Part shown: in pieces, positions 1,924 through 36,641 of the stretch
How the letters are laid out: each line of letters opens with the position of its first letter
Position numbering within the stretch: position 1 is the first letter of the stretch
Assembly (NCBI GenBank): GCA_019058315.1
Contig: JAHPZH010000002.1
Location: 1,261,910-1,325,909, forward strand
Length of the DNA: 64,000 nt
Reading direction: 5' to 3'
Origin: Candidatus Helarchaeota archaeon
GTDB taxonomy: Archaea > Asgardarchaeota > Lokiarchaeia > Helarchaeales > RDOG01
The notes under the pieces: model-generated
What the model saw: only the letters and a program-made list of their open reading frames with translations
What the model was told of the DNA's origin: nothing
Database searches by the model: none
Translations under genes and position numbers: made by a program

Positions 1924-3033
1924 ATGCAATTTGGAAGTCTCTTTATCCCCTATCTAATATCGGGGATAATTTCAATGGTAATTATAATAATTGTATGTAT
2001 AACATTAATTCATAGCTATATTAAATCAAAAAACAGTACCACAATCTTTTATATTTTCTTTTTCATGATGCTCGGAGTGTGGGCATTTACAACAACTTTT
2101 TTTCCTAGTATGGATACAATTGATTCAGCTTTATTATTACAAATTATAGGAATAATATCCATTTACTTTGGGTTTTATTCACTATTTATATTCCTAGAAT
2201 TAATAAACTATGATAAAATAAATGTAGTTCGGGCTGTTTTATTTGCCTCAGTTATAATAATTTTTCTAATTGTGATTATTATCGCCCCTCCTTTATTAAT
2301 ACAATATGATTACCTTCCAAATTTCGGTTATGCAAATAAAACTGTTTTTTTAATTACAGTACTACAAGGTATACTTTTGATTGGAATTGGGATAGAATTT
2401 TTTTTAACAGCTCTTCGATTAAAAAAAATAGCAGAAACACCTGCTCAAAAACAGCAAGCACTATGGTTCATGGCAGGTCCAGCGATTGGAATATTTGGGG
2501 GTGCTCTTGCTCCCATTTTTAGATTAATTATTAATTTTCCAGGTTTATTACTATTATTCGCTTCTATTGGAATGGCTTTATCTGGTTTGGCTTTTATCAA
2601 AGACCCAAATGTTGCTTTTTTTTTACCATTCAGAGTATATAATTTGATGGTTATTAATACTGTAGGAATAAATATTTTCCATCAAAAATTTAGTGGTTCT
2701 AAAGAAGTTAATGAAGTTTTAGTTTCTGGTATGATTACAGGGATTTCGAGCTTTATGGAAGAAGCATTAGGAGTGAAATCACAACTACGAGCGATTATCT
2801 TTGGAGATAGATATGTTTTATTAGATCTAAGGGAAAAATTTGGTGCCTTTATTGATTCGGAATCAGCTTCCAAAACTCTAAAAATAGCTCTAGAAAAATT
2901 TGCGGATTATTTTGAATCGAAATTTTCCGAATATTTAAATAAATCATCCAAAAATGTAAATGTCTATAAGTCAGCAATTGCTGGAGTTGAAAAATATTTC
3001 GGATTTTTACCTGGTTCTTGGAAATCACATTAA
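1924..3033 (+). CDS. 7TM membrane protein with C-terminal longin-like domain
   Basis: About 7 hydrophobic segments, then a ~135-aa bb-a-bbb-aa pattern (LMVINTVGINIF...LVSGMITGISSF...LEKFADYFESKF). Confidence 0.75.
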   Translation: MQFGSLFIPYLISGIISMVIIIIVCITLIHSYIKSKNSTTIFYIFFFMMLGVWAFTTTFFPSMDTIDSALLLQIIGIISIYFGFYSLFIFLELINYDKINVVRAVLFASVIIIFLIVIIIAPPLLIQYDYLPNFGYANKTVFLITVLQGILLIGIGIEFFLTALRLKKIAETPAQKQQALWFMAGPAIGIFGGALAPIFRLIINFPGLLLLFASIGMALSGLAFIKDPNVAFFLPFRVYNLMVINTVGINIFHQKFSGSKEVNEVLVSGMITGISSFMEEALGVKSQLRAIIFGDRYVLLDLREKFGAFIDSESASKTLKIALEKFADYFESKFSEYLNKSSKNVNVYKSAIAGVEKYFGFLPGSWKSH

Positions 3034-18193: not shown

Positions 18194-18230
18194 TAGAATT
18201 TCTTTTTTTTTATTTTTAAGGTGATAAAAA

Positions 18231-18593: not shown

Positions 18594-18686
18594 TTTGTAA
18601 TATTTGTTTTTTATAAAAATAGTTTTTACTAATTTTAATTTTCTTATAAAAAAATAAGAGAAAAAGGATTTGAACTTTAAAATTTT

Positions 18687-19402: not shown

Positions 19403-19620
19403 TTTTATTTTAATTTTTTTGACAAAATTAGTGAAATATTTATTTAATTAAGTTATGTATTGATATATTTTTTAAATGAAATCAGAAATATCATAATTAA
19501 TTGTATTTATTGTTAATGGACTATGTTATAATAACTTTAAATTCGAGAAGGAGTGAACTAATTAGATTTTTAGTCATTTTGACTTCTAATTATTTATAAT
19601 ACTTTTTTAAATGAATAATA

Positions 19621-20238: not shown

Positions 20239-20361
20239 CGGATTAATTTATGTTATAAAATATTTCCAGATTTATTCCATCATCTTTAATTTATATAATA
20301 AATTTTTTAGTTCTTAAAAATAAAGTTAAAAATTTTACAAAAAATTATTCTTAAAAACTTC

Positions 20362-20811: not shown

Positions 20812-20989
20812 ATTAAAAACTCCTTAAGTTTTAAAAATATATTAGACTATGAATATTTAAATCTGGTTAGAGGAAAATTAAAAATTATTCATTTAATGGG
20901 CTAAAAAATTGAAAATATTTCAATAAGATATTATTTTAACCAAAAATTTTTATAAAAAATATAAAAAAAGAGTAAAATAAACTGTTATC

Positions 20990-21973
20990 CTATTTAAAAC
21001 CTTCTACCTTAATACTTGTTACTATACCCGCATAATCTTGTATGGTTTCTTTCGTTATGCCTAGTTTTTTAATAACTTCATCTACAATTGGATCATTTAT
21101 TATGAAGTCAATTGGAAAGGTAGTTTCACCTTTAATATTAACATTCTTAAAACCTGCATTTTTTATAGCATCAAGATACTCATTTTTTAATACTGCACCA
21201 GCAACACAACCAACATAAGCTTCTACGGAGTTTCTGATGAAATCAGGGAGCTCTTTCATTAAAACAATATCTGAAATCATTATTCTCCCTCCAGTTTTTA
21301 AAACTCTATAAGCTTCTTTAAATACTCTTTCTTTATTTGGAGAGAGATTTATTACACAATTCGAAATAATAACATCAACCGAGTTATCAGCTAGTGGTAA
21401 ATTTTCAATTTCTCCAAGTCTAAATTCTACATTTTCATAATTGCCTTTTTTAGCATTCTCTCTGGCATTATCAAGCATTTCTGGTGTCATATCTACACCG
21501 ATAACTTTTCCAGACTTTCCAACTTTATTGGCCGCAAGAAAACTATCGAATCCGGCACCTGATCCTAAGTCAAGAACGAATTCTCCTTCTTTTAAAGACG
21601 CCAAAGCAGTAGGATTTCCACAACCTAATCCGAGATTTGCACCTTCAGGGACAGATTTTAATTCTTCATTAGAATATCCTATTTTTTTACTGATTGTTTC
21701 TGTTAATTGGTCTGTTCCACAACAAGATGTAATTTTAGATTTTCTTTCACCTGTAGCGGTTTTAGCATAACTTTCCCTAACCATAGATCTTATTTCGCTA
21801 TCTTTTAATTTATGAATGTTCTCATGTTTAATCTTATCAACTTCTACATCGTGTGTGTGTCCACAAGTATTTGTAGGTCCACAGCAAGACCCCATATCTT
21901 TAAATTCTTTAAAGAATTTTTCATATAATTCTTTGTCTTTTTTCTTTTCTTCATCTTCATTCATATTTTTCAC
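20990..21973 (-). CDS. arsM: Arsenite methyltransferase
   Basis: [32 protein letters not shown]. Confidence 0.92.
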
Positions 21974-21981
21974 CTCAGATA

Positions 21982-22272
21982 CTATTCAAATAAACCTTTC
22001 ATAATTGGTCCTAGCAAATTTTTTGCTCCCTCTAAAAAATATTCTGCTTTGATTAATGTCAAACAACAAACTTCTCCTTCAGATTCCCCGCTAATTAAAA
22101 CAAATTTTTCTCCTGGTTTTAAATTAGCTTTCTCCCTTACATCCTTCGGAAGAAGAATCTGCCCTCTCTTATCAACTTCCACAATTGCGTCAACTTTAAC
22201 ACACTTAGAACCGTTAAGCATCTTGCTAGTTTCACAACAAGCATTATTTATTTCATTTTTTTCCTTAGACAA
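21982..22272 (-). CDS. AbrB/MazE-type DNA-binding protein with Cys pairs
   Basis: [24 protein letters not shown]; CC pairs at the N-terminus and in 'EVCCLTLIK'. Confidence 0.82.
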
Positions 22273-22440: not shown

Positions 22441-23538
22441 ATGAATTTAATAATTATAGAGGACCCATTAAGAGAATTAATAATTGGCATAAACTATTTC
22501 ATACAAATATTAATATTTCAAATGGGTTTATTATTTATTAAACAATGGAAAAGCGGATTTAGAAAACAATCCCATAATAGAGTTGTTCTAAGTTATGGTT
22601 TTTATTATATCTTTTTAGCTATAAGTATTTTCTTCAATACTTTTTTCTACTATCAAGGACTCTCTAATCTTGCTTATGATAGGGTTCTTATCCTTTCTGC
22701 TTTCATAAGAGGAATAGGTGGAACATTATTTTCAATTAATATAGAAAATTTTATTCAAAAAGTTTTAAAAACGAGGTATTTATTTTCAATTTTCTTTATT
22801 ATTATATTGTTTGTAGTTCCATTATTTCAAAATAACCCACTTCTCTATCAAACCTTAAATTTCTTTAATTTATTCTATTTTTCGCTTCCATTTATTTTTA
22901 CATTATTTTTTATAAGAAATACCTTTGATGAAGTTAGGAAAAAATTAAAAATTTCCTTGTTTGGGATCGTTTTATTATTTTTAGGCATCTCTTTTTCTAC
23001 AGAAACACGCTTAGAATGGATCACAAGTATAATTCCTAATATTTCTCTCGTTAAAATTATTTTTCAACTAGTATCTGTTTTCGGAATTTTCCTTTTCTCT
23101 TATGGTGTTGCTGGATATTCATTTTCTTTAGAATTACAGTGGCAAAATAATTTGATATCTTTGTATATTATCGATATAAAAAGTAATTTCTGCCTTTATA
23201 ATAAAAATTATCTTGAGAGTGAGATTAAAAGTGAGCAAATATTTGCTGGGGGAATTGCTGGAGTTATAAAAATTATTAAAAAATTCACGAGTTCGCATAA
23301 AAACCTTGATGTTATTCATATAGAAAATAAATTTATTTTAATAGAATTCGGAAAGAATATTATTACAGCAATGATAATTAAAAAGAATTTATTAAATGCA
23401 AGATATATTTTGAAAGAAATTACAAGAATGTTTGAGTTCTATTTCTGGGATTATTTAGAAAATAGAGATTTAATAGCTGATAAATCAGAAATTTTTAAAC
23501 CAATGGAAATTATAATGAGAAATCTAATAAAATTATAA
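22441..23538 (+). CDS. 7TM-longin fusion protein, type A copy 1
   Basis: 7 hydrophobic segments; C-terminal longin-like domain (LYIID...IFAGGIAG...FILIEFGK...FEFYF). Confidence 0.8.
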   Translation: MNLIIIEDPLRELIIGINYFIQILIFQMGLLFIKQWKSGFRKQSHNRVVLSYGFYYIFLAISIFFNTFFYYQGLSNLAYDRVLILSAFIRGIGGTLFSINIENFIQKVLKTRYLFSIFFIIILFVVPLFQNNPLLYQTLNFFNLFYFSLPFIFTLFFIRNTFDEVRKKLKISLFGIVLLFLGISFSTETRLEWITSIIPNISLVKIIFQLVSVFGIFLFSYGVAGYSFSLELQWQNNLISLYIIDIKSNFCLYNKNYLESEIKSEQIFAGGIAGVIKIIKKFTSSHKNLDVIHIENKFILIEFGKNIITAMIIKKNLLNARYILKEITRMFEFYFWDYLENRDLIADKSEIFKPMEIIMRNLIKL

Positions 23539-23551
23539 TTAGGATTCAAAA

Positions 23552-24622
23552 ATGACGTCTTATCCAATATTCGGACATTATAGAGGAATATTATTACCTC
23601 TTGAAATAATTATGACTGGTATAATTCTGGAAATCTCGGCATTTTTTTTCCTCAGATATTTAAAAAATAGAAAAGAATCGAGACCATCTGTGGTTGAACT
23701 AAGTTGGGGAATTCTCTTTTTAAGTTTTGGAATAGCATATGTAATTTATATAATTGGTGATTTCTTTTTTGTAAGTCGTGAATTTTTTCTTCTTCTTGCA
23801 TATACTTCTTTAACTATTGGTGGATTCCTCTATGCATATCAAGTTGAATCTTCTAAGATCATAAAAACAAAGTTTTTCTTCACTGGATTTACACTTCTTG
23901 TATTATTTCTATTTTTTTTAACAGTATTTATTGCTCCAACCTGGATTCAAACAGTCGCAAGCATAGCAGTTTTCCCTGCATATTCAATATTATTGATATA
24001 TTTTATAAAAATATTTCAAAAAATATGGGTTAGATATAAATTACACATAATAGGTCTATTTGCTGGTTTCTTTCTTTGGTTCTTAGGGTACACAGCAGTC
24101 TCAGATACGTCGATTGCACTTTTTAATACTTTAGATATCCGAATTTTTGGGGATTTTATAATTATAATTGGAATGATAATACTTGGTTTATCCTTAAATG
24201 CGATTCCTTCTTTGAATGAAATCGGATGGTCAGACCAGATCAAATATATTCTTCTAATCCATCAATCTGGAATCTGTTTATATAATGAAAATTTTAAGGA
24301 AAAGAGAGAAATAAATCAAAATGTTTTGGGAGGTGCTTTAGCAGCAGTAAAATTAATAATGGAAGAAAATTTGAAAAGAAAAGAAAAATTAAAAATGATT
24401 TCTAAGGCTGGGGATGTTTTTTTAATTGAAGAGGGTGAATATACTATTGGAACTTTAGTAGTTTCCCAAGAATTAGAAATTTTAAAATATTTTCTAAAAA
24501 AGGTTATTCAGCAATTTGAAGATTTTTTTAATGAATTTTTAAAGAAATGGGATGGGAATATAAAGGTATTTAAACCAGCGAAAGGGATCATTAATAAAAT
24601 ATTTTCAATTGAAAAGACATAA
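23552..24622 (+). CDS. 7TM-longin fusion protein, type B copy 1
   Basis: 7 TM; longin-like domain (LLIHQSGICLY...LGGAL...FEDFF...WDGNIKVF). Confidence 0.8.
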   Translation: MTSYPIFGHYRGILLPLEIIMTGIILEISAFFFLRYLKNRKESRPSVVELSWGILFLSFGIAYVIYIIGDFFFVSREFFLLLAYTSLTIGGFLYAYQVESSKIIKTKFFFTGFTLLVLFLFFLTVFIAPTWIQTVASIAVFPAYSILLIYFIKIFQKIWVRYKLHIIGLFAGFFLWFLGYTAVSDTSIALFNTLDIRIFGDFIIIIGMIILGLSLNAIPSLNEIGWSDQIKYILLIHQSGICLYNENFKEKREINQNVLGGALAAVKLIMEENLKRKEKLKMISKAGDVFLIEEGEYTIGTLVVSQELEILKYFLKKVIQQFEDFFNEFLKKWDGNIKVFKPAKGIINKIFSIEKT

Positions 24623-24645
24623 ATTATTAAATATTTCGAAATTAT

Positions 24646-25086
24646 TTATTTGGATATTCTTTTCATTCTCCCTTTATTGAGAATTGCATAAACTCCTTCA
24701 CCTATAGCACAAACAACCCCCTCCCTGTTAATAACTTCTGAAAAGAGTCTAACTTCCTTTTTATTCTTATTTTTCACTTGGGACTTAATAGTGATCCTCT
24801 CGTTAATAAAAATCGGTCGTTTAAACTTAACATTCAACTCTTTTGTTACACCAACTAAATTTGCTATATGTAGAACGGTCCAACTCATTGCTTCATCCAT
24901 GACCGAGCTAATTATTCCTCCATGGACTAATTGTTCCCATCCACAAAGTTCCTTTTTAGGAGTGAATTCTGTAACTATAAAGGAATTGTCCTCTATAAAG
25001 AACTTTAGTTTTAAACCGATAGGGTTATTTTGACCACACACGAAACAATAACTTTCACCATTTCCAGATGGGATTTCTTTTCGCAT
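24646..25086 (-). CDS. PaaI-family hotdog thioesterase
   Basis: CFVCGQNNPIGL, HGGIISSVMDEAM. Confidence 0.9.
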   Translation of the reverse strand: MRKEIPSGNGESYCFVCGQNNPIGLKLKFFIEDNSFIVTEFTPKKELCGWEQLVHGGIISSVMDEAMSWTVLHIANLVGVTKELNVKFKRPIFINERITIKSQVKNKNKKEVRLFSEVINREGVVCAIGEGVYAILNKGRMKRISK

Positions 25087-25193
25087 TTTATTAAGCTCAC
25101 ATTAACATTTTTTTATAATCTATATAATTTCGAAATAATAAGCTTTTAATTCTATAAATAATTAATATTCTGAAAATATCCAACTTTATAGAA

Positions 25194-26309
25194 TTGGGAA
25201 GTCAAATGGAATTATCTTATCGAGATCCTTTCAATGAAATCTCTATTGGTTTGAATTACGTAATTGCCGTATTCCTTCTGGAATTGGGAGTAATATTTAT
25301 TAAGCAATGGATTTTTGAGAGAAAGAAACAAGTAAAAAACGAATTTGGACTAGGTTATGGAATATATTTTTTAACTTTTTCAATAAGCAGTTTTCTATAT
25401 TTTTACATTATCGATCATGATATGTCTAAACAAGTTTTCGATTCATCTTTCATCTTAAGCATATTAATAAGAGGGATTGGTGGATTATTTTTTGCAATTA
25501 ATTTAGAATATCATGTTCAAAAGGTGTTAAAAACAAGATATCTTTTCTCGATTTCATCGATTATTTTGTTACCTATCATTACTTTTTCTTTAGATACCAC
25601 TTTCTTTTATCGGGTTCTAGATATATTTGATATTTTTCATTTGATTCTTCCTATTTATTTTACTAGTTATTTTATAAGAAATGCATTCGGTGAGATAAGA
25701 CAAAAGTTGAAATTTTCAGTATCGGGGTTCCTTTTATTTTTCATAACTTTGACCTTTTCTTCAAAATTACGTATAGAAATAATCGAAATTATATTTTCCT
25801 TTGCAAATATTATAATTTTTCTTTCTAAATTAATAGCAATATTGGCGATTTTTTTTGTTCTTTATGGTTTTACAGGATATTCATTTTATTTGGAAACACA
25901 ATGGAAAAATAATTTGATCTCCATACATATAATTAAAAGGAAAGAAAGAGTTAGCTTATATAATAGGAATTTTTTAAGTAGTGAGATACAGAGTGAAGCA
26001 TTATTTGCAGGTGGAATCACAGGAATGGTAAAAATAGTTAGTGATTTTACAGATTCCAATAAAACTCTCCAAGAAATTAATGTAGAGGATAAATTGATTT
26101 TATTAGAATTTGGGAAATACATTATTACAGGAATGATTATTAAAAAAAGGGTGTTAAATGCTAGATATATTTTAAAAGAAATAACTTCAAAATTTGAGTT
26201 TTATTTCCGTGAATATTTAGAAAATTACGAATTATTTTCTAGTTCATATACCCAAGCAGAACTATTTCGACCAATGGAAATGGTCATTAGAAATTTAATA
26301 AAAATGTAA
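25194..26309 (+). CDS. 7TM-longin fusion protein, type A copy 2 (likely start ATG 25206)
   Basis: Paralog of 22441 (QKVLKTRYLFSI, NARYILKEIT, FEFYF, RNLIK). Confidence 0.8.
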   Translation: MGSQMELSYRDPFNEISIGLNYVIAVFLLELGVIFIKQWIFERKKQVKNEFGLGYGIYFLTFSISSFLYFYIIDHDMSKQVFDSSFILSILIRGIGGLFFAINLEYHVQKVLKTRYLFSISSIILLPIITFSLDTTFFYRVLDIFDIFHLILPIYFTSYFIRNAFGEIRQKLKFSVSGFLLFFITLTFSSKLRIEIIEIIFSFANIIIFLSKLIAILAIFFVLYGFTGYSFYLETQWKNNLISIHIIKRKERVSLYNRNFLSSEIQSEALFAGGITGMVKIVSDFTDSNKTLQEINVEDKLILLEFGKYIITGMIIKKRVLNARYILKEITSKFEFYFREYLENYELFSSSYTQAELFRPMEMVIRNLIKM

Positions 26310-26322
26310 TTTAGATGGTAAA

Positions 26323-27396
26323 ATGGTTGATTTTCCGATAGTTGGACCATATAGGGACTTACTGATGGCATTGGAACTAATTATTATATTCATTGTATTA
26401 CAAAATTCGTTATATTTTTTTCAAAAATATCGTAATAATAAAAAAAATGAAGTTCCTTCGTTTGTTGAATTTGATTGGGGTATAATTTTTCTAACATATG
26501 CGATAACGAGTATTGCTTATATTTTCAGTGCGTTTTTTTATGTTATTCGAGTTCATTTTCTTTTCATCGGTTATATTTCTGTAGCAACTGGAGGTTTAAT
26601 ATTTTCATATAGTGTAGAATCAACAAAAACTGTTAATACAAAATATTTCTTCACGCTTTTTACTACTTGTGTTATAATCCTACTAATAACTATTTTTGTA
26701 GTTGCCGAATCATTATTGCAAACATTTGCATATTTAGCTATGGGTCCCGCATTTACATTATTATTTTTCTACTTTTTTAAAGTGAGTAAGAAACTTTGGA
26801 CTGGATATAAACTGCATTCAATAGGTTTATTTCTCGGAGTTACTCTATGGTTTGTAGGATATATGGGAACTTCGGATGTGGCAGTTGGATTATTTGGGGG
26901 GTTATATATTAGGGTAATAGGAGACCTAGGAATAATATGTGGAATGCTATTAATCGGAATTTTCTTGAATTATATACCCTCCTTGTCTGAAATTGGTTGG
27001 CAACAAAAAATCAAATATATTCTTATATTAACTCATTCAGGAATTTGCGTATATAATGAAAACTTTAGAGAAAAAAGAGAATTACGCGAAATTATTTTAG
27101 CGGGAGCTCTATCTGGTATTAAATTGTATATGGAAGAAACTCTAAAAAGTTTTCCAAAATTAAAAACGATTTCCAAAGAAAATGAAGTGTTTTTATTAGA
27201 AGAGGGTAAATATATTATTGGAGTTTTAGTAGTTGAACAAGAATTAGAAATTTTAAAATACTTTTTGAAAAAAATAGTGTATGAATTTGAAGAATTTTTT
27301 CAAGATATCTTAAAAAATTGGAATGGGGATACTAATATTTTCAAACCTACTAAAAATATCGTCAATAATATCTTGTCTATTGAAAAATATATTTAA
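26323..27396 (+). CDS. 7TM-longin fusion protein, type B copy 2
   Basis: Paralog of 23552 (PSL.EIGW, YNENF.EKRE, QELEILKYFLKK). Confidence 0.8.
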   Translation: MVDFPIVGPYRDLLMALELIIIFIVLQNSLYFFQKYRNNKKNEVPSFVEFDWGIIFLTYAITSIAYIFSAFFYVIRVHFLFIGYISVATGGLIFSYSVESTKTVNTKYFFTLFTTCVIILLITIFVVAESLLQTFAYLAMGPAFTLLFFYFFKVSKKLWTGYKLHSIGLFLGVTLWFVGYMGTSDVAVGLFGGLYIRVIGDLGIICGMLLIGIFLNYIPSLSEIGWQQKIKYILILTHSGICVYNENFREKRELREIILAGALSGIKLYMEETLKSFPKLKTISKENEVFLLEEGKYIIGVLVVEQELEILKYFLKKIVYEFEEFFQDILKNWNGDTNIFKPTKNIVNNILSIEKYI

Positions 27397-27434
27397 TTTC
27401 AAAAATTTACTTTCAAAATCAAATACTATCAATA

Positions 27435-27460
27435 ATTTCGCTCTAGCGAAATCTTTTTTT
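27435..27460 (+). terminator. Hairpin ATTTCGCT-CT-AGCGAAAT followed by a T tract
   Basis: Perfect inverted repeat plus oligo-T downstream of the 27396 stop; could alternatively be an operator. Confidence 0.45.
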
Positions 27461-27517
27461 GATTAATAATGTATTTGAAAACATGATAAGAAATTCAAAT
27501 TATGGGAGTTAATTCAA

Positions 27518-28588
27518 TTGATACAATTTCCAATTCAAGGTTCATTTAGAGAGATTATATTAATGGTTGAGATGATTATTGTTGTTTTGAATATTCAATT
27601 TGCGATAATATTTTTGAATCGGTATCTAAAACAAAAAGGGGTTAAAAATAATATGTATATAGCTTGGACAATACTATTTTTTTGCTTTGCAATTACTTAT
27701 TTCCTATTTATATTAACTGATTTCTATGTTTCTCCCAACGATCGCCCATTTTTTTTAAATATTAGCTATATTTTTATAGGTTCTGGTCAAACTTTATTAT
27801 TTTACAATATAGAAAGAGAAATGAAATCAGAAAAATATATTTTTACAAAGATTGTTTTAGGAGTTTTATCTTTCTTTATTATCAATACTATTTTTAATTT
27901 AATATATTCAACTCCCTTCTCTACAATTTATTGGGGGTTATTTTTCGTTCTTTTAATCATTTTTGGTAATAAATATTTAACCAGAATTAGACAAACTTGG
28001 AAATTGAATATATATGGCTTCATAATAGGGGCAACATTAACAATTATAGGGTGGGGGGGAATATCTGATTTAGGTATGAGTATTTTAGGTATAGAATTTC
28101 GTTTATTTGGTGATTTGTTTATAATTACCGGAACAAGTTTAATGACCCTATTTTTCGTTGGTTTACCTCGTCTATCTGAGATCGATTACTTCGAGAAAGT
28201 TAAAAGGATTTTTATAATGCATAATTCAGGAATACCAATATTCGAGCAAACTTTTAAAAAAGAACAAGATTTTAAAGAAACTGATTTAAGATCTTCACTA
28301 TTTGCGGGGGGATTGACCACAGTATCACAATGGATTACGGATTTAATCCAAAGTAAAGGTCACTTGGAGATAGTCGATCATGGAGATGTAAAAATAATTT
28401 TTGAATATGGTAAATATACAATAAATGTTTTAATTGTTGAAGAAGTGCTTAATATTTTAAAAAACAAATTGAAAACAATCACAAATGAAGTTGAGAATCT
28501 ATATCAAGACATTCTTCCAACTTGGGAGGGAGATATGTCTCCGTTTGAATTGTTAAAAAATATAATTCAACAAAATTTTGAAATTTAA
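27518..28588 (+). CDS. 7TM-longin fusion protein, type C copy 1
   Basis: 7 TM; longin-like domain (IMHNSGIPI, LFAGGLT, DVKIIFEYG, WEGD). Confidence 0.8.
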   Translation: MIQFPIQGSFREIILMVEMIIVVLNIQFAIIFLNRYLKQKGVKNNMYIAWTILFFCFAITYFLFILTDFYVSPNDRPFFLNISYIFIGSGQTLLFYNIEREMKSEKYIFTKIVLGVLSFFIINTIFNLIYSTPFSTIYWGLFFVLLIIFGNKYLTRIRQTWKLNIYGFIIGATLTIIGWGGISDLGMSILGIEFRLFGDLFIITGTSLMTLFFVGLPRLSEIDYFEKVKRIFIMHNSGIPIFEQTFKKEQDFKETDLRSSLFAGGLTTVSQWITDLIQSKGHLEIVDHGDVKIIFEYGKYTINVLIVEEVLNILKNKLKTITNEVENLYQDILPTWEGDMSPFELLKNIIQQNFEI

Positions 28589-28616
28589 TTTGGTTTAATT
28601 TCCTAAGTGAAGTAAA

Positions 28617-29735
28617 ATGTTACAATTACTATTAGAAAGAATCCCACCACTAATCAGAGAATCAAACTTCCCTTTAGAAGGTCTATTTAGAGAGCCACTT
28701 TTAATTCTTGAAGGAATTATTATTCTTTTAACATTTCAATATGGAATTTATTTCTTCTATAAATTTGCAAAAGAAGAGAGGGAAAAAAATTATATGATAA
28801 GAGCTTGGGCTACTTTCTTTCTAAGCTATACCTGTAATATTATCTTTTTTCTTATTAGCGATTTCTTTTCAACTATATATTATATTCGCCAAATATATAT
28901 TGACTTTGGATATATTATATTGGGACTTGGAGCGTTATTCTTTTCATATAATGCAGAACGTGAAATGCAGCAAAAAAAACATTTTTTCACAATAATTCTA
29001 ACAATATTATTAGGCCTACTCATTTTAGATACAATTTTATTAGTTGCTCCCCCTGGCGTTATAGCATTATTTGTGAATATACCATTTATTTTTGTATTAT
29101 TACTATATATTATAAAATTTACATCCAAAATAAAAGAAAAATGGAGATTAAATATATATGGTTTTTTAATTGGTATGTGCATCTGGATTTCTGGATATGC
29201 ACTTGTTACAGATCTAATGGTTAATTCATTTGGTACAATTGCAAGATTTATTGGAGATATTTTAATTATAATTGGTATAAGCTTAATATCACTTCTATTC
29301 ATCGGATTGCCTAGTCTGACAGAGTTTGAATGGCCAAAAAAAATGAAAAAAATATATGTAATGCATAAATCGGGAAAATATATCTCTGATTACAATTTTC
29401 AAGAGAATTTAACTGGAACTGAAGAATACAAAGATTTACCCAAATTAATCACAGGTGGATTGACAGGTATAAATAAATTAATTGATGAAATTGTCCATAG
29501 CAAAGAAGGTTTAAAAATTATGGATCATAAAGATGTAAAAATAATTTTTCAATACGGAACTTATCTTATAGCTGTGATTATCGTGGATGAAGCATTAGAT
29601 ATATATAAAACAAAACTAAAGAAAATGATAGATTATTTAGAAATGCTCTACGAGACCTATCTCCCCACTTGGGATGGAGATTTAACCCAATTTCTAATTA
29701 TTAAGCCTATAATAAAACGCTTCTTTACATTATAA
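28617..29735 (+). CDS. 7TM-longin fusion protein, type C copy 2
   Basis: Paralog of 27518 (W.LNIYGF.IG, VMHKSG, DVKIIFQYG, WDGD). Confidence 0.8.
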   Translation: MLQLLLERIPPLIRESNFPLEGLFREPLLILEGIIILLTFQYGIYFFYKFAKEEREKNYMIRAWATFFLSYTCNIIFFLISDFFSTIYYIRQIYIDFGYIILGLGALFFSYNAEREMQQKKHFFTIILTILLGLLILDTILLVAPPGVIALFVNIPFIFVLLLYIIKFTSKIKEKWRLNIYGFLIGMCIWISGYALVTDLMVNSFGTIARFIGDILIIIGISLISLLFIGLPSLTEFEWPKKMKKIYVMHKSGKYISDYNFQENLTGTEEYKDLPKLITGGLTGINKLIDEIVHSKEGLKIMDHKDVKIIFQYGTYLIAVIIVDEALDIYKTKLKKMIDYLEMLYETYLPTWDGDLTQFLIIKPIIKRFFTL

Positions 29736-29786
29736 TTCTTTATTATTTAATTGGGATAATGATTAATTTAATTCAAGAGTTATTAA

Positions 29787-30317
29787 TTAAACAGATGTTT
29801 TACTCAAAATTATTTTTGCAAAGTTATAAAAGGCTTCGTTAATCATAATATCAGCTTTTGCAGAGGTTTCAAAAAAACCATCTGCTTGCAGCATTTGTGC
29901 TAATTGTTCTCCCTCTTCCTTGGTAATTTGTCTGCTATCTTCTAAATCAACTTTATTCCCAACAATAATGAAATGAGCATCATTTGTGAAAGATTTTAAA
30001 TCGCTATGCCAATTTGGTATATTTTCAAAAGAATCTCTATCTGTAATTGAATAGACTAATAATGCAGCTTGAGCACCTGCAGCATATTTTTTTCTCAATT
30101 CCTTAAATTGTTCTTGACCTCCAATATCAAAAATTACAAATGTAACAGAATAATCGCCACTTTCACTAATATCAATCTGTCTTTCATAAACATTATATCC
30201 CAAAGTTGATAAATATTGACCCTCAAATCTATTGTTAATATATCGCTCAACTAACGAGGTCTTACCAACCGCAGCGTTGCCAAAAAGTACTAATTTGAAT
30301 TTATATGAGGCCGCCAT
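29787..30317 (-). CDS. Rab-like small GTPase
   Basis: G1 GNAAVGKTS, G2 STLG, G3 DIGGQ, G4 NKVD, G5 ETSAK; no C-terminal Cys. Confidence 0.93.
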   Translation of the reverse strand: MAASYKFKLVLFGNAAVGKTSLVERYINNRFEGQYLSTLGYNVYERQIDISESGDYSVTFVIFDIGGQEQFKELRKKYAAGAQAALLVYSITDRDSFENIPNWHSDLKSFTNDAHFIIVGNKVDLEDSRQITKEEGEQLAQMLQADGFFETSAKADIMINEAFYNFAKIILSKTSV

Positions 30318-30546
30318 CTTTACTCTTCCTATAAAATTTTTTGACTTTCATTTTTTAATAGATTAAAGTAGATCTTATTAACTTAGGATAATATGTAGTT
30401 AAATTTTTTTAAAAATCTGATGAGAATTTATAATTAATAATATTTAATTATAAGAAATATGTAAAAATTTAATTTGAAATCAAAATTTGAGATTTAGACC
30501 TTTTAAATTTTACATCTAATTTGATGTTGGCTTTTTATATCAAAAT

Positions 30547-31056
30547 TTAACCCACAAGTACTTTAGCAAATGTCAAAAACGCGTGATCAATCCCTATATT
30601 TTCCTTTGCGGAAGTTTCAAAAAAACCATCTGCAAATAATTCCAATGATAAATCTTCCCCTTCTTGAATGGTAACAACCCTTTGATCTACTAAATCAACT
30701 TTATTTCCAATCAAAATAAATCGAGCACCATCAGTGAATTCCATTAAATCATTATACCAATTTCTAACATTTTCAAAAGAATCTCTGTTTGTAATGTCAT
30801 ACATTATAAGTGCTGCATTAGCTCCTTTCGAGTATTGCTTTCTCAATTCTGTAAATTGTTCTTGTCCACCAATATCAAAAATTAAAAATGATATTCGATT
30901 ATTACCCATTTCGATAATTTTTTCTAGCACATTATATCCTAATGTAGAAATATAATCTTCTTCAAATTTATTATTAACATACCTATTAACTATCGAAGTT
31001 TTTCCGACTGCCGCATTACCATATAAAATAATCTTGAATCTATAAGTAGGCTCCAT
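30547..31056 (-). CDS. Rab-like small GTPase, tandem paralog
   Basis: Same G1-G5 motifs; no C-terminal Cys. Confidence 0.93.
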   Translation of the reverse strand: MEPTYRFKIILYGNAAVGKTSIVNRYVNNKFEEDYISTLGYNVLEKIIEMGNNRISFLIFDIGGQEQFTELRKQYSKGANAALIMYDITNRDSFENVRNWYNDLMEFTDGARFILIGNKVDLVDQRVVTIQEGEDLSLELFADGFFETSAKENIGIDHAFLTFAKVLVG

Positions 31057-31133: not shown

Positions 31134-32270
31134 TTATTTTGATAAAAAATGTGAACTAAATTTTTTCAATCCCTTTAGAGCAGAAAGTTTTACCTTTTTA
31201 TTTAATTTTAAATCTGATATTACGGATTCCAAATATTTTATTGAATTATCCATCTCTTTTCTATCAATGGGGTATGGTTCACCATCTTTTCCACCAAATG
31301 CAAGAGCGTATTTAACTGGATCTCGAAATTTAATCTCTTTATCAAAAATCACAGAAGATACAAAGGATAAACCTCGAATCATCCCTGGACCAACTCCTTT
31401 AGTAGCCACAAATTCTTCATAAGTACGAGGTTGAAATTCGTATAAATTTTTTAGAACTTTCCATTTAACACGACGAGGTATTAGTTTATAATAATATTTA
31501 AATTTAGGAAGCATGCTCCCCTCTTCAAAATAAGTCGATAATGTTGTTTGACCTAATTCAGAACGCAATTGAATGGAATTAAAAAGATTTAACGTTTTTT
31601 TGGGTCTTTCTTTAATTAAATCTAAAGTGGTTTGCCGAATTTCCTCATTTTGTCTATAAGTTAAATCCAATACATCTTGATGTTTAATCTGGCTTAAAAT
31701 CTCCTCTTCTGGTTCATCTATGAAATCTGTGACATTATTAGAATACCAATGATATCTACGAGACATTCTATTATCTGGATTGAGACCTTGTTGAACGATG
31801 GTCCAGTTACCCTCTTTATTCACAAAAAAAGTATGAATATATAAATTATAACCATCTTGTATTACCGAATTATCTACTTTTGCAATAATTTTACTAATAT
31901 ATTTTAATTTATTCAAATAATCTTCTGAAAATTCAAATTTTTTTGAGATTTTATTCAAGTCTTCTAATGTTTGTAGGCTACGTTTACCCTTTCCACCAGC
32001 CTCTAAGACTCCATATTCTGTATCTAAAATAGATTTCAAAACTCCACATAAAACTGTCGTAGTTCCCGAGGAATTCCAGTCCATTCCTGTTACACATGAT
32101 AATGCTTGGAACCATAGTGGATTCGCAAGTCGTTTTAAGATTTCTTCAGAACCAAACTCTTCGTGTATAATTTTAAGAATTGCAGATGAGAGTTTCTTCA
32201 TACGTATTAAAAGCCAATACGGTGCATGTCCTCCATGTAAGCGAAGATCGGTAATTCCACTTCTAATCAA
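31134..32270 (-). CDS. DUF763 family protein
   Basis: LHGGHAPYWL, GMDWNSSGTTT, VQQG, RRYHW, HhH-like GVGP, GGKDG.PYP. Confidence 0.85.
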   Translation of the reverse strand: MIRSGITDLRLHGGHAPYWLLIRMKKLSSAILKIIHEEFGSEEILKRLANPLWFQALSCVTGMDWNSSGTTTVLCGVLKSILDTEYGVLEAGGKGKRSLQTLEDLNKISKKFEFSEDYLNKLKYISKIIAKVDNSVIQDGYNLYIHTFFVNKEGNWTIVQQGLNPDNRMSRRYHWYSNNVTDFIDEPEEEILSQIKHQDVLDLTYRQNEEIRQTTLDLIKERPKKTLNLFNSIQLRSELGQTTLSTYFEEGSMLPKFKYYYKLIPRRVKWKVLKNLYEFQPRTYEEFVATKGVGPGMIRGLSFVSSVIFDKEIKFRDPVKYALAFGGKDGEPYPIDRKEMDNSIKYLESVISDLKLNKKVKLSALKGLKKFSSHFLSK

Positions 32271-32420: not shown

Positions 32421-33197
32421 TTAATCCGTCATCCCAATTCTACGTTTAAACCAATCTGGCATTGAAAAACAGACATAAAAAATAATTGCGGCAGGTACAT
32501 AAAATATTTGGATAAATTGTAAGCTAGGATTTACTGATGCAACAAGAATGGCTATTGAAAAACATAAGATGCCCAGTCCCAACCAGATGGAACGGTTACT
32601 GTGAGCTCTCTGTTCTCCTCGAACCTTTTTAGCATAATAAAAGAAGAGAGATATAGGAATTATTACAAATGGTACAAGACCTAAAGAACGTATTAACATA
32701 AAATCTAACGAAAAATAAACTAAAAAATTAATGACTCTGCTATATGGAGGTCCTTGTACAGCTGCCCAAACACCAGTATATACCAAAATAGCTGATAGGA
32801 TAAGTAATATAACTAATACAATTGTGTATCTTCTTGGAAAAGTTACCCGAATTGAAAATAAATTAACCAATAGAATACAAGAAAGGGCAAATAAATTTGT
32901 AATTATTGTGCAAAGAATTCCAAGTCCTAATAATCCCCAATTTGTAAGACTAAACCTTACTAAGATTGCAAAAATAGCAGCGAATATTAAGCATATCATA
33001 CCTACTAGAAATAATAACGTTTCAATTAATTTATTTTCTTTATAGTTAGTATATAATGCATGGATTATACCAACTAAAAATATCCCACTAATTAATAATG
33101 AAAAAAGTGTAATAAGTTCGATTGGGGAACTTAAAATAGACGTGCCAAATATTTGATTAAAATAAAACTGGAGAGAATAAAACCAATCAACTGACAT
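32421..33197 (-). CDS. 7TM membrane protein, array paralog 5
   Basis: 7 hydrophobic segments; C-tail MPDWFKRRIG. Confidence 0.85.
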   Translation of the reverse strand: MSVDWFYSLQFYFNQIFGTSILSSPIELITLFSLLISGIFLVGIIHALYTNYKENKLIETLLFLVGMICLIFAAIFAILVRFSLTNWGLLGLGILCTIITNLFALSCILLVNLFSIRVTFPRRYTIVLVILLILSAILVYTGVWAAVQGPPYSRVINFLVYFSLDFMLIRSLGLVPFVIIPISLFFYYAKKVRGEQRAHSNRSIWLGLGILCFSIAILVASVNPSLQFIQIFYVPAAIIFYVCFSMPDWFKRRIGMTD

Positions 33198-33305
33198 TTT
33201 TTTACCTTCTCAATGATATATTAAATTGTATTAACTTTTTCAAAATATTTGATAGCATATATTTATTTTTTTCTAAAATACAAATTTATTAAAAATACAT
33301 ATAGA

Positions 33306-34097
33306 TTAATCAGTCCAGCCAATTCTACGTTTAAACCAATCTGGCATAGAAAAACAAACATAAAATATTATAGCGGCAGGAACAAATAGTATTTGAATAA
33401 GTTGTAACTTAGGGATTACTGTTGTAACCAGAATTGTTGTAGCAAAACATAATATGCCCAGTCCTAACCATATGGAGCGATTAGAGTGAGCCCTTTGCTC
33501 ACTTCGAACTTTTTTTGCATAATAGAAGAAGAGTGAAATTGGGATTATAGAAAAAGGTAAAAGGCAAAAAAAACGTATTAGCATAAATACTGGAGAAAAA
33601 ACAACTACAAAATCAATAACTCTTACATGTGGAGGTCCTTGAATAGCTGCCCAGAGACCGGAATATACCAAAATGGCTGAAAGAATAAGCAATATTACTA
33701 ATATATTTTTATATTTCTTTGGAAAAGTCACTCGAATTGAAAATAAATTAACCAATACAATACAAATCAAAACGATAATACCCATAATTACTGAAATAAG
33801 ATCTCCTAGCCCTCTTAAACCCCAATTTAATAAAATAAATCTTAATATGATTGCAAAAACAGAAGCGATTATTAAACATATCATACCTAATAAGAAAAAT
33901 AATGTCTCAATCAATTTATTCTTCATATAATTAATATATAATGCATGGATTATCCCCGCTAAAAATATCCCACTTATTAATAATGAAATAAGCGTAATAA
34001 GTTCTGCGGGGTTAATAGAAGAAGTCCCAAATATTTTATTAAAATAAAATTGTAGAGAATACCACCAATCAACTGCCATTTTTACCCTTTCACTCAA
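33306..34097 (-). CDS. 7TM membrane protein, array paralog 4
   Basis: Same family; likely start at MAVDW. Confidence 0.85.
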   Translation of the reverse strand: MSERVKMAVDWWYSLQFYFNKIFGTSSINPAELITLISLLISGIFLAGIIHALYINYMKNKLIETLFFLLGMICLIIASVFAIILRFILLNWGLRGLGDLISVIMGIIVLICIVLVNLFSIRVTFPKKYKNILVILLILSAILVYSGLWAAIQGPPHVRVIDFVVVFSPVFMLIRFFCLLPFSIIPISLFFYYAKKVRSEQRAHSNRSIWLGLGILCFATTILVTTVIPKLQLIQILFVPAAIIFYVCFSMPDWFKRRIGWTD

Positions 34098-34180
34098 ATA
34101 TTAAATTCTAGATTATATACTTAGTATGAGTTATGAAAATATTAATTTTTTTATAATTATCATAAATTCCAGTCTACTAA

Positions 34181-34954
34181 TTAATCGATCCATCCAATTT
34201 TACGTTTAAACCATTCTGGCATAGAAAAACAAACATAGAAAATTAATGCAGAAGGAGCAAATAATACTTGAATAATTTGTAATCTGGGGAAAACTCCTGT
34301 TACCAAAACAGCTATATCAAAAAATAAAATACCTAATCCCAACCAGATGGAGCGGTTACTGTGAGCTCTTTTTTCCTCTCGAACTTTGTTAGCATAGTAA
34401 AAGAAAAGTGCTATTGGAATTATAGAATATGGTAAGAGACAAAAAAAACGTATTAAGGTTAACTCTAAAGTAAAAAAAACTAGAAAATCGACGACTCTGA
34501 CATAGGGAAATCCTTGGAAAGCTGCCCAAAGACCAGTATACAGCATAATAGCCGAAAGAACAAGTAGAATCACTAATACAATTTTATATCTCCTTGGAAA
34601 TGTCACACGAATTGAAAATAAATTAACTAGTACAATACAAGTCAGAACGAAAAGATTCATACCTAGTGTAAAAAGATCTCCAAGCCCTCTTAAACCCCAG
34701 TCTCTATAAGCAAATCTTAATAATATTGCAAAAACAGAACCAATTATCAGAAAAATCATCGCATATAAAAAAAGTAAAGTTTCTATCAATTTATTCTTCT
34801 TATAGGTTGTATATAATGCATGAATTATTCCAATTAATAAAATCCCACTTACTGATAATGTAACAAGTGAAATTAATTCTATTGGGTCAGTAGAAGAAGT
34901 CCCAAACAGTTTATTAAAATAAAATTGTACAGAATAGAACCAATCATCAGCCAT
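34181..34954 (-). CDS. 7TM membrane protein, array paralog 3
   Basis: Same family. Confidence 0.85.
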   Translation of the reverse strand: MADDWFYSVQFYFNKLFGTSSTDPIELISLVTLSVSGILLIGIIHALYTTYKKNKLIETLLFLYAMIFLIIGSVFAILLRFAYRDWGLRGLGDLFTLGMNLFVLTCIVLVNLFSIRVTFPRRYKIVLVILLVLSAIMLYTGLWAAFQGFPYVRVVDFLVFFTLELTLIRFFCLLPYSIIPIALFFYYANKVREEKRAHSNRSIWLGLGILFFDIAVLVTGVFPRLQIIQVLFAPSALIFYVCFSMPEWFKRKIGWID

Positions 34955-35053
34955 TTTTTTTCCTTCTCACTCTATAATTAAAATTGATATTATAATCGAA
35001 ATGATTATTCTGAAATATTAATTTTTTCATATGGATAAAGAAGTAAAAAGTGA

Positions 35054-35839
35054 TTAATCAGTCCATCCAATTTTACGTTTAAACCAATCAGGCATAGAAA
35101 AACAGATATAAAAAATAATGGCGGCTGGTACATACATTACTTGGATAAGTTGGAATCTGGGGTAAGCTGTTGCAACTACAATGGCTATAGAAAAACACAA
35201 TATGCCTAATCCCAACCAAATGGAGAGGTTACTATGAGATCTTTGCTCTTCTCGAACTTTTTTAGCATGATAGAAGAAAAGCGATATTGGAATTATGGAA
35301 AATGACACAAGACCAATAACACGTATTAATGTAATTACTGGAGAAAAAACAAGTCCAAAATCAACAACTTGGCTATGTGGAGGTCCTTCAAGAGTTGCCC
35401 AAAAACCAGTATATACCAAAATACCAAATAAAACAAGTAATATCCCTAAAAAGAATTTATATCTTTTAGGAAAAGTCACACGAATTGAAAATAAATTAAC
35501 CAATGTAACACAAATTAAAATGGAAACACTCATAAGTATTGATAAAATATCTCCAAGCCCTTTTAAACCCAAATTTTCATAAATAAATCTCAATACAATT
35601 GCAGAAACTGCTCCGATTATCAAAAAAAACATAGCAATTAAAAAGAATAAAGTTTCAATCAATTCATTTTTTTTATAGCTTTGATATAACGCATGGATAA
35701 TCCCAATTAAAAAAATCCCACTTACAATTAATGAAACAAGCGTAAGCATTGAGAATGGGTCAGAATAACTAATTATTTGATTGAAATAAAATTGAAGAGA
35801 ATACTGCCAATCAATAGCCATTTTTATCTTCACCTTCAT
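35054..35839 (-). CDS. 7TM membrane protein, array paralog 2
   Basis: Same family; likely start at MAIDW. Confidence 0.85.
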   Translation of the reverse strand: MKVKIKMAIDWQYSLQFYFNQIISYSDPFSMLTLVSLIVSGIFLIGIIHALYQSYKKNELIETLFFLIAMFFLIIGAVSAIVLRFIYENLGLKGLGDILSILMSVSILICVTLVNLFSIRVTFPKRYKFFLGILLVLFGILVYTGFWATLEGPPHSQVVDFGLVFSPVITLIRVIGLVSFSIIPISLFFYHAKKVREEQRSHSNLSIWLGLGILCFSIAIVVATAYPRFQLIQVMYVPAAIIFYICFSMPDWFKRKIGWTD

Positions 35840-35867
35840 TTTTTAATTTTTATATTAATAGATATAA

Positions 35868-36641
35868 TCATTCGACCCAGCCAATTCTTTTTTTAAACCA
35901 ATCCGGCATGGAAAAACAAACATAAAATATTAGAGCCGCAGGAACAAAAAATACTTGAATAAATTGAAATATGGGGATAATTGCTACTACCAGAATGGGT
36001 ATAACAAAACATAGTATACCCAATCCTAACCAGATGGAGCGATTGCTATGAGCTCTTTGCTCTTGTCGAACTTTTTTAGCATAATAGAAGAAAAGAGACA
36101 TTGGAATAATAGAAAATGGTAAGAGACAAAAAAAACGTATTAACATATACTCTATAGAATAAACAACTACAAAATCAACAACTCTGATATATGGAAATCC
36201 TTGATCAGATGCCAAAAGAGCAGTATATACCATGATAGCTGAAAGAATAAGCAATATTACTAATATATTTTTATATTTCTTTGGAAAAGTCACTCGAATT
36301 GAAAATAAATTAACCAATATAAAACAAGTTAAAACAGAAATATTCATGATAAATGTAAGAAAATCTCCTAGTCCTCTTAAGCCCCAATTTCTATAAGCAA
36401 ACCTCACTAATATTGCTAAAACAGACCCAATTATCAAAAAAATCATCCCATATAAAAAAAGTAACGTTTCTATCAATTTATTCTTCTTATAGGTTGTATA
36501 TAATGCATGAATTATCCCAATTAATAAAATCCCACTCACAGATAATGAAACAAGCGAAATAAGTTCTATTGGGTTAACAGTAGAAGTCCCAAATATCTTA
36601 ACAAAATAAAATTGTACAGAATAGAACCAATCATCAGCCAT
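35868..36641 (-). CDS. 7TM membrane protein, array paralog 1
   Basis: Same family. Confidence 0.85.
   Translation of the reverse strand: MADDWFYSVQFYFVKIFGTSTVNPIELISLVSLSVSGILLIGIIHALYTTYKKNKLIETLLFLYGMIFLIIGSVLAILVRFAYRNWGLRGLGDFLTFIMNISVLTCFILVNLFSIRVTFPKKYKNILVILLILSAIMVYTALLASDQGFPYIRVVDFVVVYSIEYMLIRFFCLLPFSIIPMSLFFYYAKKVRQEQRAHSNRSIWLGLGILCFVIPILVVAIIPIFQFIQVFFVPAALIFYVCFSMPDWFKKRIGWVE

Follow-up and report, generated by a model that had tools for sequence, protein, structure and literature searches.

Paired seven-helix membrane proteins with longin-type tails and their association with a clade of Rab-like GTPases in a Helarchaeota genome

Which proteins receive the small GTPases of Asgard archaea at the membrane? 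These archaea encode dozens of Ras-superfamily GTPases and many longin/roadblock proteins, and the matching of regulators to GTPases is an open question; how anchor-less Asgard GTPases reach the membrane in cells without endomembranes is a further open point (PMC10933270). A 64,000-nucleotide (nt) stretch of the genome of a Candidatus Helarchaeota archaeon (assembly GCA_019058315.1, contig JAHPZH010000002.1, positions 1,261,910 to 1,325,909; hereafter the window), lying within a 1.4-Mb contig of a 5.79-Mb genome of Lokiarchaeia/'Promethearchaeota' type in 12 contigs, raises the question in a concrete form. Six open reading frames (ORFs) on its + strand, each of 356-372 codons and together spanning 22441-29735, encode seven-transmembrane (7TM) proteins with a C-terminal domain and end next to two Rab-like GTPase genes. 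A preliminary description of the window had read these genes as a module of receptor, guanine nucleotide exchange factor (GEF) and GTPase. We found that the 7TM-longin protein is a real and new architecture of a known regulatory fold and that the receptor-GEF reading is partly supported; we hold it somewhat probable that the paired 7TM-longin proteins form a GTPase-binding membrane platform. The genes of the locus are as follows.

22441..23538, + strand: A1, 7TM and C-terminal longin-type domain, A-type (upstream partner), 365 residues (ORF; 'upstream' clade of the family tree)
23552..24622, + strand: B1, 7TM and longin-type domain, B-type (downstream partner), 356 residues (ORF; 'downstream' clade)
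24646..25086, - strand: 4HBT-type thioesterase (Pfam 4HBT, 1.7e-10)
25194..26309, + strand: A2, 7TM and longin-type domain, A-type, 371 residues (AlphaFold2 model, VIA-align)
26323..27396, + strand: B2, 7TM and longin-type domain, B-type, 357 residues, the modelled reference (AlphaFold2 model, VIA-align)
27518..28588, + strand: C1, 7TM and longin-type domain, offshoot of the B clade, 356 residues (ORF, tree)
28617..29735, + strand: C2, 7TM and longin-type domain, offshoot of the B clade, 372 residues, its 3' end facing GTPase 1 (ORF, tree)
29787..30317, - strand: Rab-like small GTPase 1, 176 residues, no lipidation motif (Pfam Ras, 2e-48)
30547..31056, - strand: Rab-like small GTPase 2, 169 residues (Pfam Ras, 6.7e-48)

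The six ORFs fully match the preliminary description, and their assignment of about seven transmembrane (TM) helices and a C-terminal domain is upheld by the ORFs, the structural models and full-length alignment. Because the gaps within pairs are short (13 nt for A1-B1, 13 nt for A2-B2 and 28 nt for C1-C2), whereas the 121-nt gap between B2 and C1 contains a terminator-like hairpin (27435-27452), the genes form three bicistronic pairs rather than a single array. The 'paired array' of the preliminary description thus stands as to the pairs, which are paralogous and co-diverge, and not as to the array, which consists of three bicistrons and is split between B1 and A2 by the thioesterase gene (24646-25086, - strand) that had been passed over. 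As had been described, C2 and GTPase 1 converge across 51 nt (29736-29786). Both opposite-strand genes match Pfam Ras. Identities are 48% for A1/A2, 51% for B1/B2, 38% for C1/C2 and ~20% between A-type and B-type proteins; the nearest database relatives of B1 are hypothetical proteins from Promethearchaeota, Helarchaeota and Lokiarchaeota.

What is the C-terminal domain? B2 was modelled with AlphaFold2 from a 94-sequence alignment of the family (mean pLDDT 92.6, pTM 0.86), and in the model seven long helices (residues 11-217) are followed by a ββ-α-βββ-α-α domain (230-352); the A2 model (pLDDT 91.6, pTM 0.86) shows the same 7TM plus ββαβββαα architecture, and A1, B1, C1 and C2 align full-length with the modelled proteins. 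DSSP assigned to B2 the elements E230-237, E242-247, H256-273, E282-285, E288-294, E298-304, H309-331 and H337-352, with the same order in A2. The domain of ~135 residues has only a 4-residue helical turn before β1 and ends in two helices. Longins are defined by the order ββ-α-βββ-αα, with a sheet of five strands that is flanked by a single helix on one side and by two C-terminal helices on the opposite side, and without an N-terminal helix (PMC10933270), and this is the topology of the modelled C-terminal domains of both A2 and B2.

Structural searches gave the same assignment. In a VIA-align search of 48,161 solved chains, which is independent of Foldseek, the best whole-domain matches of A2 and B2 were longins (Z 11-13.2 over 113-128 residues). 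For B2, in which they cover the whole C-terminal domain (residues 226-357), these were Fuzzy of CPLANE (Z 13.1, 124 residues, root-mean-square deviation (rmsd) 2.9), Trs23 (12.6), VAMP7 (12.3, 113 residues, rmsd 2.4), Sec22 (12.1), BLOC-3 (11.4), and Mon1-Ccz1 and the SRX domain of SRα (both Z ~11); for A2 they included Fuzzy (13.2), TRAPP Bet5 (12.5) and BLOC-3 (12.0). The top Foldseek matches were AP sigma subunits, Fuzzy, Mon1-Ccz1 and TRAPP. At the sequence level, none of the six window proteins matched Pfam at E<=1; among 94 family members, Fuz_longin_1 was matched by three (best 2e-5), Sybindin by three (below threshold) and Intu_longin_1 by one, and the only significant match of a longin-only profile to PDB sequences was yeast Trs23 (E 5.6e-4, over the β1-β2-α1 'SG..LY...F' region). 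These signals to Trs23 and Fuz_longin_1 are thin, and they point the same way as the structures. The longin-type bb-a-bbb-aa patterning noticed earlier is therefore confirmed as a longin-type fold at the level of predicted models and their structural comparison. Roadblock proteins also matched B2 (MK-D1 Roadblock3, Z 11.5; MglB, Z 11.3), in alignments that end at residue ~330 and omit the last helix. The roadblock/LC7 topology, α-ββ-α-βββ(-α), was rejected for a domain with two C-terminal helices and no real N-terminal helix; as modelled, the domain is the longin variant of the fold common to longin and roadblock proteins, which places it in the same superfamily and makes kinship with roadblocks possible. 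Across the 94 members the conserved longin positions are G240, W333, G335 and F340 (B2 numbering), together with a linker P-x3-E-x2-W in which W226 is 98% conserved.

The 7TM part was oriented from its charges. Among the 94 members, loops 1, 3 and 5 hold on average 4.9, 3.2 and 4.6 lysines plus arginines, and the N-terminus and loops 2, 4 and 6 hold 1.0, 1.0, 0.3 and 1.1; this asymmetry implies an extracellular N-terminus and a cytoplasmic C-terminal domain. In VIA-align the 7TM part of B2 superposed on ADGRL3 (Z 13.6), ACER3 (13.0), GABA-B and CD97 (12.0-12.4) and on designed GPCR-like bundles, the GPCR-like range being Z 12-13.6, within which helical bundles reach ~Z 13 without kinship; Foldseek matched CaSR at E 8.7e-3. 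No Pfam match to a G protein-coupled receptor (GPCR; 7tm) family was found for the six window proteins or the 94 members, one of which matches Pfam 7TMR-DISM_7TM at E 1e-3. On the model, we describe the 7TM part as GPCR-shaped and do not call it a GPCR, as the similarity is within the background range of seven-helix bundles. Conserved TM residues (B2 numbering) are R11, E18, D70, R76, G90, E99, G179, R197 and G200, of which D70, R76 and R197 lie near the outer ends of TM2, TM3 and TM7, and E99 (93%) lies at the cytoplasmic end of TM3. The E99-equivalent site reads E-R-E in C1 (27812-27823) and C2 (28956-28967), superficially like the GPCR E/DRY motif, position alone being compared. A zinc hydrolase of the CREST/PAQR/alkaline ceramidase (ACER) type, with its conserved intramembrane His/Asp zinc site, is disfavoured: no histidine reaches 70% conservation in the TM region of the 94 members.

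The GEF reading can be weighed on these data. It holds that the 7TM bundle senses a ligand and thereby activates the longin heterodimer fused to it, which would be the GEF of the adjacent Rab-like GTPases, in a GPCR-like logic. The highest structural scores do fall on longins of Rab-GEF platforms (Fuzzy/CPLANE 13.1-13.2, Trs23/Bet5 12.5-12.6, BLOC-3 11.4-12.0, Mon1-Ccz1 ~11), the sequence hints lead to Trs23 and Fuz_longin_1, heterotypic pairs would resemble Bet5-Trs23 or Mon1-Ccz1, and the conserved outer-end charges D70, R76 and R197 could make a binding pocket. However, longin/roadblock platforms serve equally as GTPase-activating proteins (GAPs) and as anchors, MglB/LAMTOR-type domains score within 1-2 Z units, each chain has a single longin and not the tri-longin build, and no Bet3-like partner was seen in the locus. 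The 7TM-longin proteins have no extracellular sensor domain, and their 7TM-GPCR similarity (Z 12-13.6) is in the range of unrelated helical bundles, so that ligand sensing would rest only on a generic GPCR-like helix arrangement; the GTPases keep their catalytic Gln and all G motifs, which is uninformative on a GEF. We regard this specific mechanism as unlikely. Of the receptor-GEF-GTPase module first proposed, the longin fold, the pairing and a GTPase link remain, whereas no catalytic signature is conserved and the tri-longin build is absent.

Are the two proteins of a pair partners? Tandem pairs were present in 19 of the 20 loci fetched from relatives. In a family tree of 81 full-length members, one clade (SH-aLRT, an approximate likelihood-ratio branch test, 99) consists of the upstream genes of pairs (22 of 22 members) and its sister group of the downstream genes, and the branching of one subtree is mirrored, locus for locus, in the other: the upstream and downstream distance matrices of 24 pairs correlate at r=0.88, a value reached in none of 2000 permutations (p<0.0005). 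Both clades are old and extend across Lokiarchaeia. A1-B1 and A2-B2 stem from a recent duplication of one A/B pair in the tree, with orthologues in Helarchaeota (L001), Lokiarchaeota (L003) and genome G003 (L044). C1 and C2 are nested together within the B clade, and their subclade (SH-aLRT 99) further includes the pair of genome G004 and one G003 gene; by its place in the tree, C1-C2 is an older B-B′ pair. The long co-inheritance of two diverged paralogues in a bicistron with 13-nt spacing suggests that the A and B partners form a heterodimer.

The two GTPases share 60% identity. Their best PDB sequence matches are Rab23 and Rab8 (1e-32 to 1e-34) and a Thorarchaeota Rab (1e-30), and their G1-G5 motifs are intact (GNAAVGKT, TLGYNV, DIGGQE, NKVD and SAK), with the catalytic switch II Gln retained in DIGGQE. 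Neither has a C-terminal Cys for geranylgeranylation, the termini being ...ILSKTSV and ...KVLVG, so that their description as non-prenylated was correct; Asgard Rabs without prenylation Cys have been reported (PMC10933270). Among 55 small GTPases, the two of the window and two from the array at C11:127018-132962 (L059:5019-10963) form an exclusive clade (SH-aLRT 99). This array, the only other A/B-pair array in the genome, contains four 7TM-longin genes in the order GTPase(+), B(-), A(-), GTPase(+), A(+), B(+), that is, two A/B pairs of different lineages, and its second GTPase lies 78 bp upstream of its pair and co-directional with it. In relatives, the orthologous pair-adjacent GTPases at L034 (G009), L038 (G029), L042 (G023) and L051 (G014) have Asp/Glu in place of the switch II Gln, the motif reading DFIGDE, DLVGEE or DFGGED as against DIGGQE in the window clade. 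The two pair-associated GTPase lineages may thus differ in their route to hydrolysis.

These residues bear on another possibility, namely that the longin dimer is a GAP or a GTP-state-specific partner (MglB-like, of the NPRL2/FLCN type, or an effector of the SRX-SRβ type) that switches off or reads the GTPase. The matches to MglB and the MK-D1 roadblock (Z 11.3-11.5, rmsd 2.2-2.7) and to the SRα SRX domain, a binder of SRβ-GTP (Z ~11), would suit such a role, as would the partner-dependent Asp/Glu type of the GTPases at L034, L038, L042 and L051. The longin domain, however, has no conserved Arg or Lys in the family and hence nothing to mark an arginine-finger GAP, the roadblock matches lack the last helix, and the window GTPases retain their catalytic Gln. 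We consider a role of this kind very unlikely.

Is the adjacency of the GTPases meaningful? The host genome encodes 111-115 GTPase-like ORFs, 55-56 of them small GTPases, or one small GTPase per ~50 kb, and at this density chance adjacency has to be excluded. A small GTPase lies within 200 bp at 4 of the 28 7TM-longin loci, compared with 0.65 by random placement (p about 0.006), and at three of these four at least one GTPase is co-directional and 65-150 bp upstream of the 7TM-longin gene. Of the 24 stand-alone proteins that match the same longin profile, 5 have a small GTPase as neighbour (0.37 expected). The best matches of a window GTPase in relatives (~50% identity) are reciprocal best hits of the exclusive GTPase clade, and in two of the four cases that could be judged the co-orthologue lies 12 nt (G003) or 3 nt (G006) from the 3' end of a full-length 7TM-longin gene, convergent as in the window. 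GTPases were also found within 1 kb of 5 of 20 pair loci of relatives, in varying orientation; this is about threefold over a rough estimate, and because the loci are partly orthologous it is not an independent test of significance. Four of these five GTPases are mutual orthologues across four genomes. The 7TM-longin neighbours in G003 and G006 come from another branch of the family, to which the nearest relative in the host genome is a seventh member in the window, matched by the family hidden Markov model (HMM) over profile positions 11-355 at E 6.9e-18.

1924..3033, + strand: seventh 7TM-longin member, 369 residues, of the unpaired 'single' clade (family HMM, tree)

Taken together, there is a real but non-obligatory genomic association between the 7TM-longin family and one Rab-like GTPase subfamily. 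The adjacency first noticed at this locus therefore exceeds chance and concerns one GTPase clade, but it extends to only about 15-25% of loci and there is no conserved operon.

The family is far larger than this locus. An exhaustive HMMER search with B2 returned 703 representatives (50% identity clusters) at E<=1e-3, mostly of ~360 residues and matching end to end; each of the 31 genomes sampled from the class of the host has the family, and of 201 genomes spread over the phylum 54 contain close B-type relatives (E<1e-45), in several families outside the class as well. By the family profile the host genome has 40 full-length members at 28 loci, and ~80 further ORFs match the longin part alone, among them 24 stand-alone longins. 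A further six ORFs have a match to the 7TM part alone, and three of these adjoin a longin-only gene or a GTPase gene. In three proteins of 327-332 residues an N-terminal longin (HMM E 1e-8 to 1e-12) is fused directly with a Ras-family GTPase at the C-terminus (Pfam Ras 1e-49); they are encoded as follows.

C5:543259-544239 (L069): longin-GTPase fusion (family HMM and Pfam Ras)
C3:142049-143044: longin-GTPase fusion (family HMM and Pfam Ras)
C3:143159-144148: longin-GTPase fusion (family HMM and Pfam Ras)

The longin module occurs in other settings as well. About 13 paralogous, mostly soluble proteins of 1110-1155 residues end in a longin (family HMM E 1e-34 to 1e-39) and give weak TPR/MIT-like signals (for example C3:696465-699866, L062), several of them clustering at C3:1.29-1.35 Mb. 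At C5:824010-825650 (L067) a major facilitator superfamily (MFS) transporter (MFS_1 6e-18, ~11 TM segments) carries a C-terminal longin, and similar forms of ~550 residues occur in many relatives; this 'transceptor'-like fusion recalls SLC38A9 feeding Ragulator-Rag. At C5:173121-174492 a 7TM-only protein of 239 residues and a longin-only protein of 212 residues are encoded 20 bp apart by convergent genes, which resembles a split form of the architecture.

This census also brings up a reading without any GTPase, in which the longin tail is a dimerisation, sorting or regulatory module of a 7TM transporter, channel or enzyme and GTPase neighbours only mirror how densely such genes lie in Asgard genomes. 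The abundance of GTPase-like ORFs in 5.8 Mb, the many family loci with no GTPase neighbour, the same longin type on unrelated architectures (the MFS transporter, the ~1100-residue soluble proteins and others) and a 7TM part that matches ACER3 (Z 13.0) about as well as GPCRs would all fit it. Against it, permutation tests reject chance adjacency, the adjacent GTPases are clade-specific and recur with another 7TM-longin clade in other genomes, direct longin-GTPase fusions exist, and the lack of a conserved TM His argues against a zinc hydrolase of the ACER/PAQR type. We consider such a GTPase-independent role possible, if doubtful.

The reading that we favour, a GTPase-binding membrane platform, can be set out as a sequence of steps. 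The two paralogous seven-helix proteins of each bicistron (A and B, or B′ and B″) would assemble as a membrane heterodimer, in which the cytoplasmic longin domains would pair to give a platform of two longins on the inner side of the membrane. This platform would bind a particular subfamily of Rab-like GTPases, here the two neighbours; since these have no lipid anchor, the platform would in this way bring them to the membrane, govern which nucleotide they carry, or both. It would itself be anchored by the 7TM bundle, which may also gate it on a membrane or extracellular cue. To our knowledge, longin/roadblock dimers form GTPase-binding platforms in all well-studied cases. The outcome of binding differs among them: GEF activity in TRAPP, Mon1-Ccz1, CPLANE and BLOC-3, GAP activity in MglB, GATOR1 and FLCN, a scaffold in Ragulator, and a GTP-state receptor in SRX-SRβ. 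The computed evidence does not discriminate among GEF, GAP, scaffold and GTP-state receptor roles. A complex prediction for the C1 longin, the C2 longin and GTPase 1 scored 0.26 against a mark of 0.32, which speaks neither for nor against binding.

Several observations weigh against the platform. About 75-85% of loci have no GTPase neighbour, including the orthologues of A1-B1/A2-B2 in Helarchaeota, Lokiarchaeota and G003; the window GTPases are convergent with the array and hence are not co-transcribed with it and form no operon; and the two GTPase-flanked arrays of the host genome could come from one segmental duplication, which would lower their independence. In addition, the longin fold also has roles unrelated to GTPases, in SNARE regulation and as adaptor subunits, and the longin domains of the 94 family members share no conserved basic or catalytic residue. 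Dimerisation and GTPase binding are both inferred, as would be a catalytic direction (GEF or GAP) and a ligand.

How does this architecture compare with known systems? The TRAPP subunits Bet5/TRAPPC1 and Trs23/TRAPPC4 (Sybindin family; Rab1/Ypt1 GEF) share the longin fold (B2-Trs23 Z 12.6, A2-Bet5 12.5) and the placement of two paralogous longins side by side; they are, however, soluble subunits of a multisubunit complex that needs Bet3, whereas the present longin forms the end of a 7TM protein, and the window locus has no Bet3/TRAPPC3-like gene. Mon1-Ccz1, Fuzzy-Inturned (CPLANE) and HPS1-HPS4 (BLOC-3) are heterodimers of paralogous longin proteins, a likeness that is here suggested by the gene pairs; they give the best structural matches, and the putative target is likewise a Rab-like GTPase. 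These tri-longin Rab GEFs have three longins per chain and are recruited peripherally, whereas the present proteins have one longin, are membrane-integral and are at most putative GEFs. Ragulator/LAMTOR-Rag and MglA-MglB provide a dimeric platform of roadblock/longin type by which a small GTPase without a lipid anchor is held or controlled at a membrane, and SLC38A9 is a precedent for a multi-pass membrane sensor that feeds a Ragulator-type platform. Ragulator relies on a lipidated subunit for its anchor and on a separate protein as sensor; in the present family a single polypeptide combines anchor and platform, with the longin and not the roadblock variant of the fold. With 7TMR-DISM proteins and GPCRs the family shares seven TM helices, an outside N-terminus, an inside C-terminus and a cytoplasmic output domain, and it superposes on adhesion and class C GPCRs within the seven-helix-bundle range (Z 12-13.6); in contrast to them it has no extracellular sensor domain and no Pfam GPCR match, and its output is a longin domain rather than a kinase, a cyclase or a heterotrimeric G-protein interface.

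The closest published material comes from the same lineage. Asgard GTPase expansions, soluble longin/roadblock proteins and their GTPase fusions are already known (PMC10933270), and these soluble proteins and fusions belong to the same fold superfamily (PMC10933270; 10.1101/2020.10.19.343400); a transmembrane fusion is mentioned neither by Tran et al. 2024 (PMC10933270) nor by Liu et al. in their 2020 preprint (10.1101/2020.10.19.343400), which proposed an operon of roadblock, Rab-like GTPase and DENN genes as a candidate GEF module. Tran et al. stated that the GTPase genes of MK-D1 are generally not in operons with roadblock or longin genes (PMC10933270), whereas here one GTPase clade recurs beside 7TM-longin genes. 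A 2026 preprint names '7TM proteins' of Asgard archaea and a 'class C GPCR'-like cluster and gives no details of either, and we found no published description of the 7TM-longin fusion, its pairing or its GTPase link. New here are the A/B clades with mirrored trees, the genome-wide census, the permutation tests and the clade-specific, reciprocal GTPase association.

Two further features lie beyond the GTPases.

31134..32270, - strand: DUF763 protein, between the membrane paralogues and the GTPases (Pfam DUF763, 3e-117)
32421..36641, - strand: five tandem multi-pass membrane paralogues of ~258 residues (64-75% mutual identity)

The five paralogues have ~7-8 hydrophobic segments and no Pfam match, and their genes are upstream of, and co-directional with, those of DUF763 and both GTPases; the genome encodes 26 proteins of this membrane family, and several of their genes lie within 136-181 bp of a gene with a longin. 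The 7TM part of the 7TM-longin HMM also matches two of these proteins, and a direct profile-profile comparison of the two families was weak (probability 6.8%). The ~258-residue proteins, which have no longin, may be distantly related to the 7TM domain, a kinship that hangs on those two intermediate sequences only. The ORF at 699-1844, upstream of the seventh member, does not belong to the family (hhalign probability 0.2%). The array is directly preceded, at window positions 15803-22272, by a metal/arsenic-type resistance set (a YHS-domain P-type ATPase, an AsnC-TRASH regulator, an ArsC-like low-molecular-weight phosphatase, an S-adenosylmethionine (SAM) methyltransferase and a MazE-like protein), which is probably unrelated to the 7TM-longin module. 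The 4HBT thioesterase is probably unrelated as well; it is neither homologous nor syntenic to the gene at the equivalent position of the Helarchaeota locus L001. A scan for sigma-70 promoters found 66 against 64 expected, a comparison that is uninformative in AT-rich archaeal DNA.

The locus thus provides a concrete, testable pairing of a defined GTPase clade with a membrane family that has a built-in longin platform and apparently forms heterodimers. A bolder proposal is that heterodimeric 7TM receptors use their longin tails to control, without intermediates, which nucleotide is carried by dedicated Rab-like GTPases that lack a lipid anchor, in a one-step relay, and that the eukaryotic longin platforms (TRAPP, Mon1-Ccz1, CPLANE) descend from, or once were, membrane-integral sensors; we think this distinctly unlikely. 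If the platform does bind the GTPases, an Asgard small-GTPase pathway would gain its first membrane-proximal step, and the longin-based Rab regulators of eukaryotes a plausible evolutionary precursor. If it does not, the 7TM-longin proteins would still be a large, Asgard-wide and unnamed membrane family, with hundreds of sequence clusters, that deserves a name and a Pfam entry.

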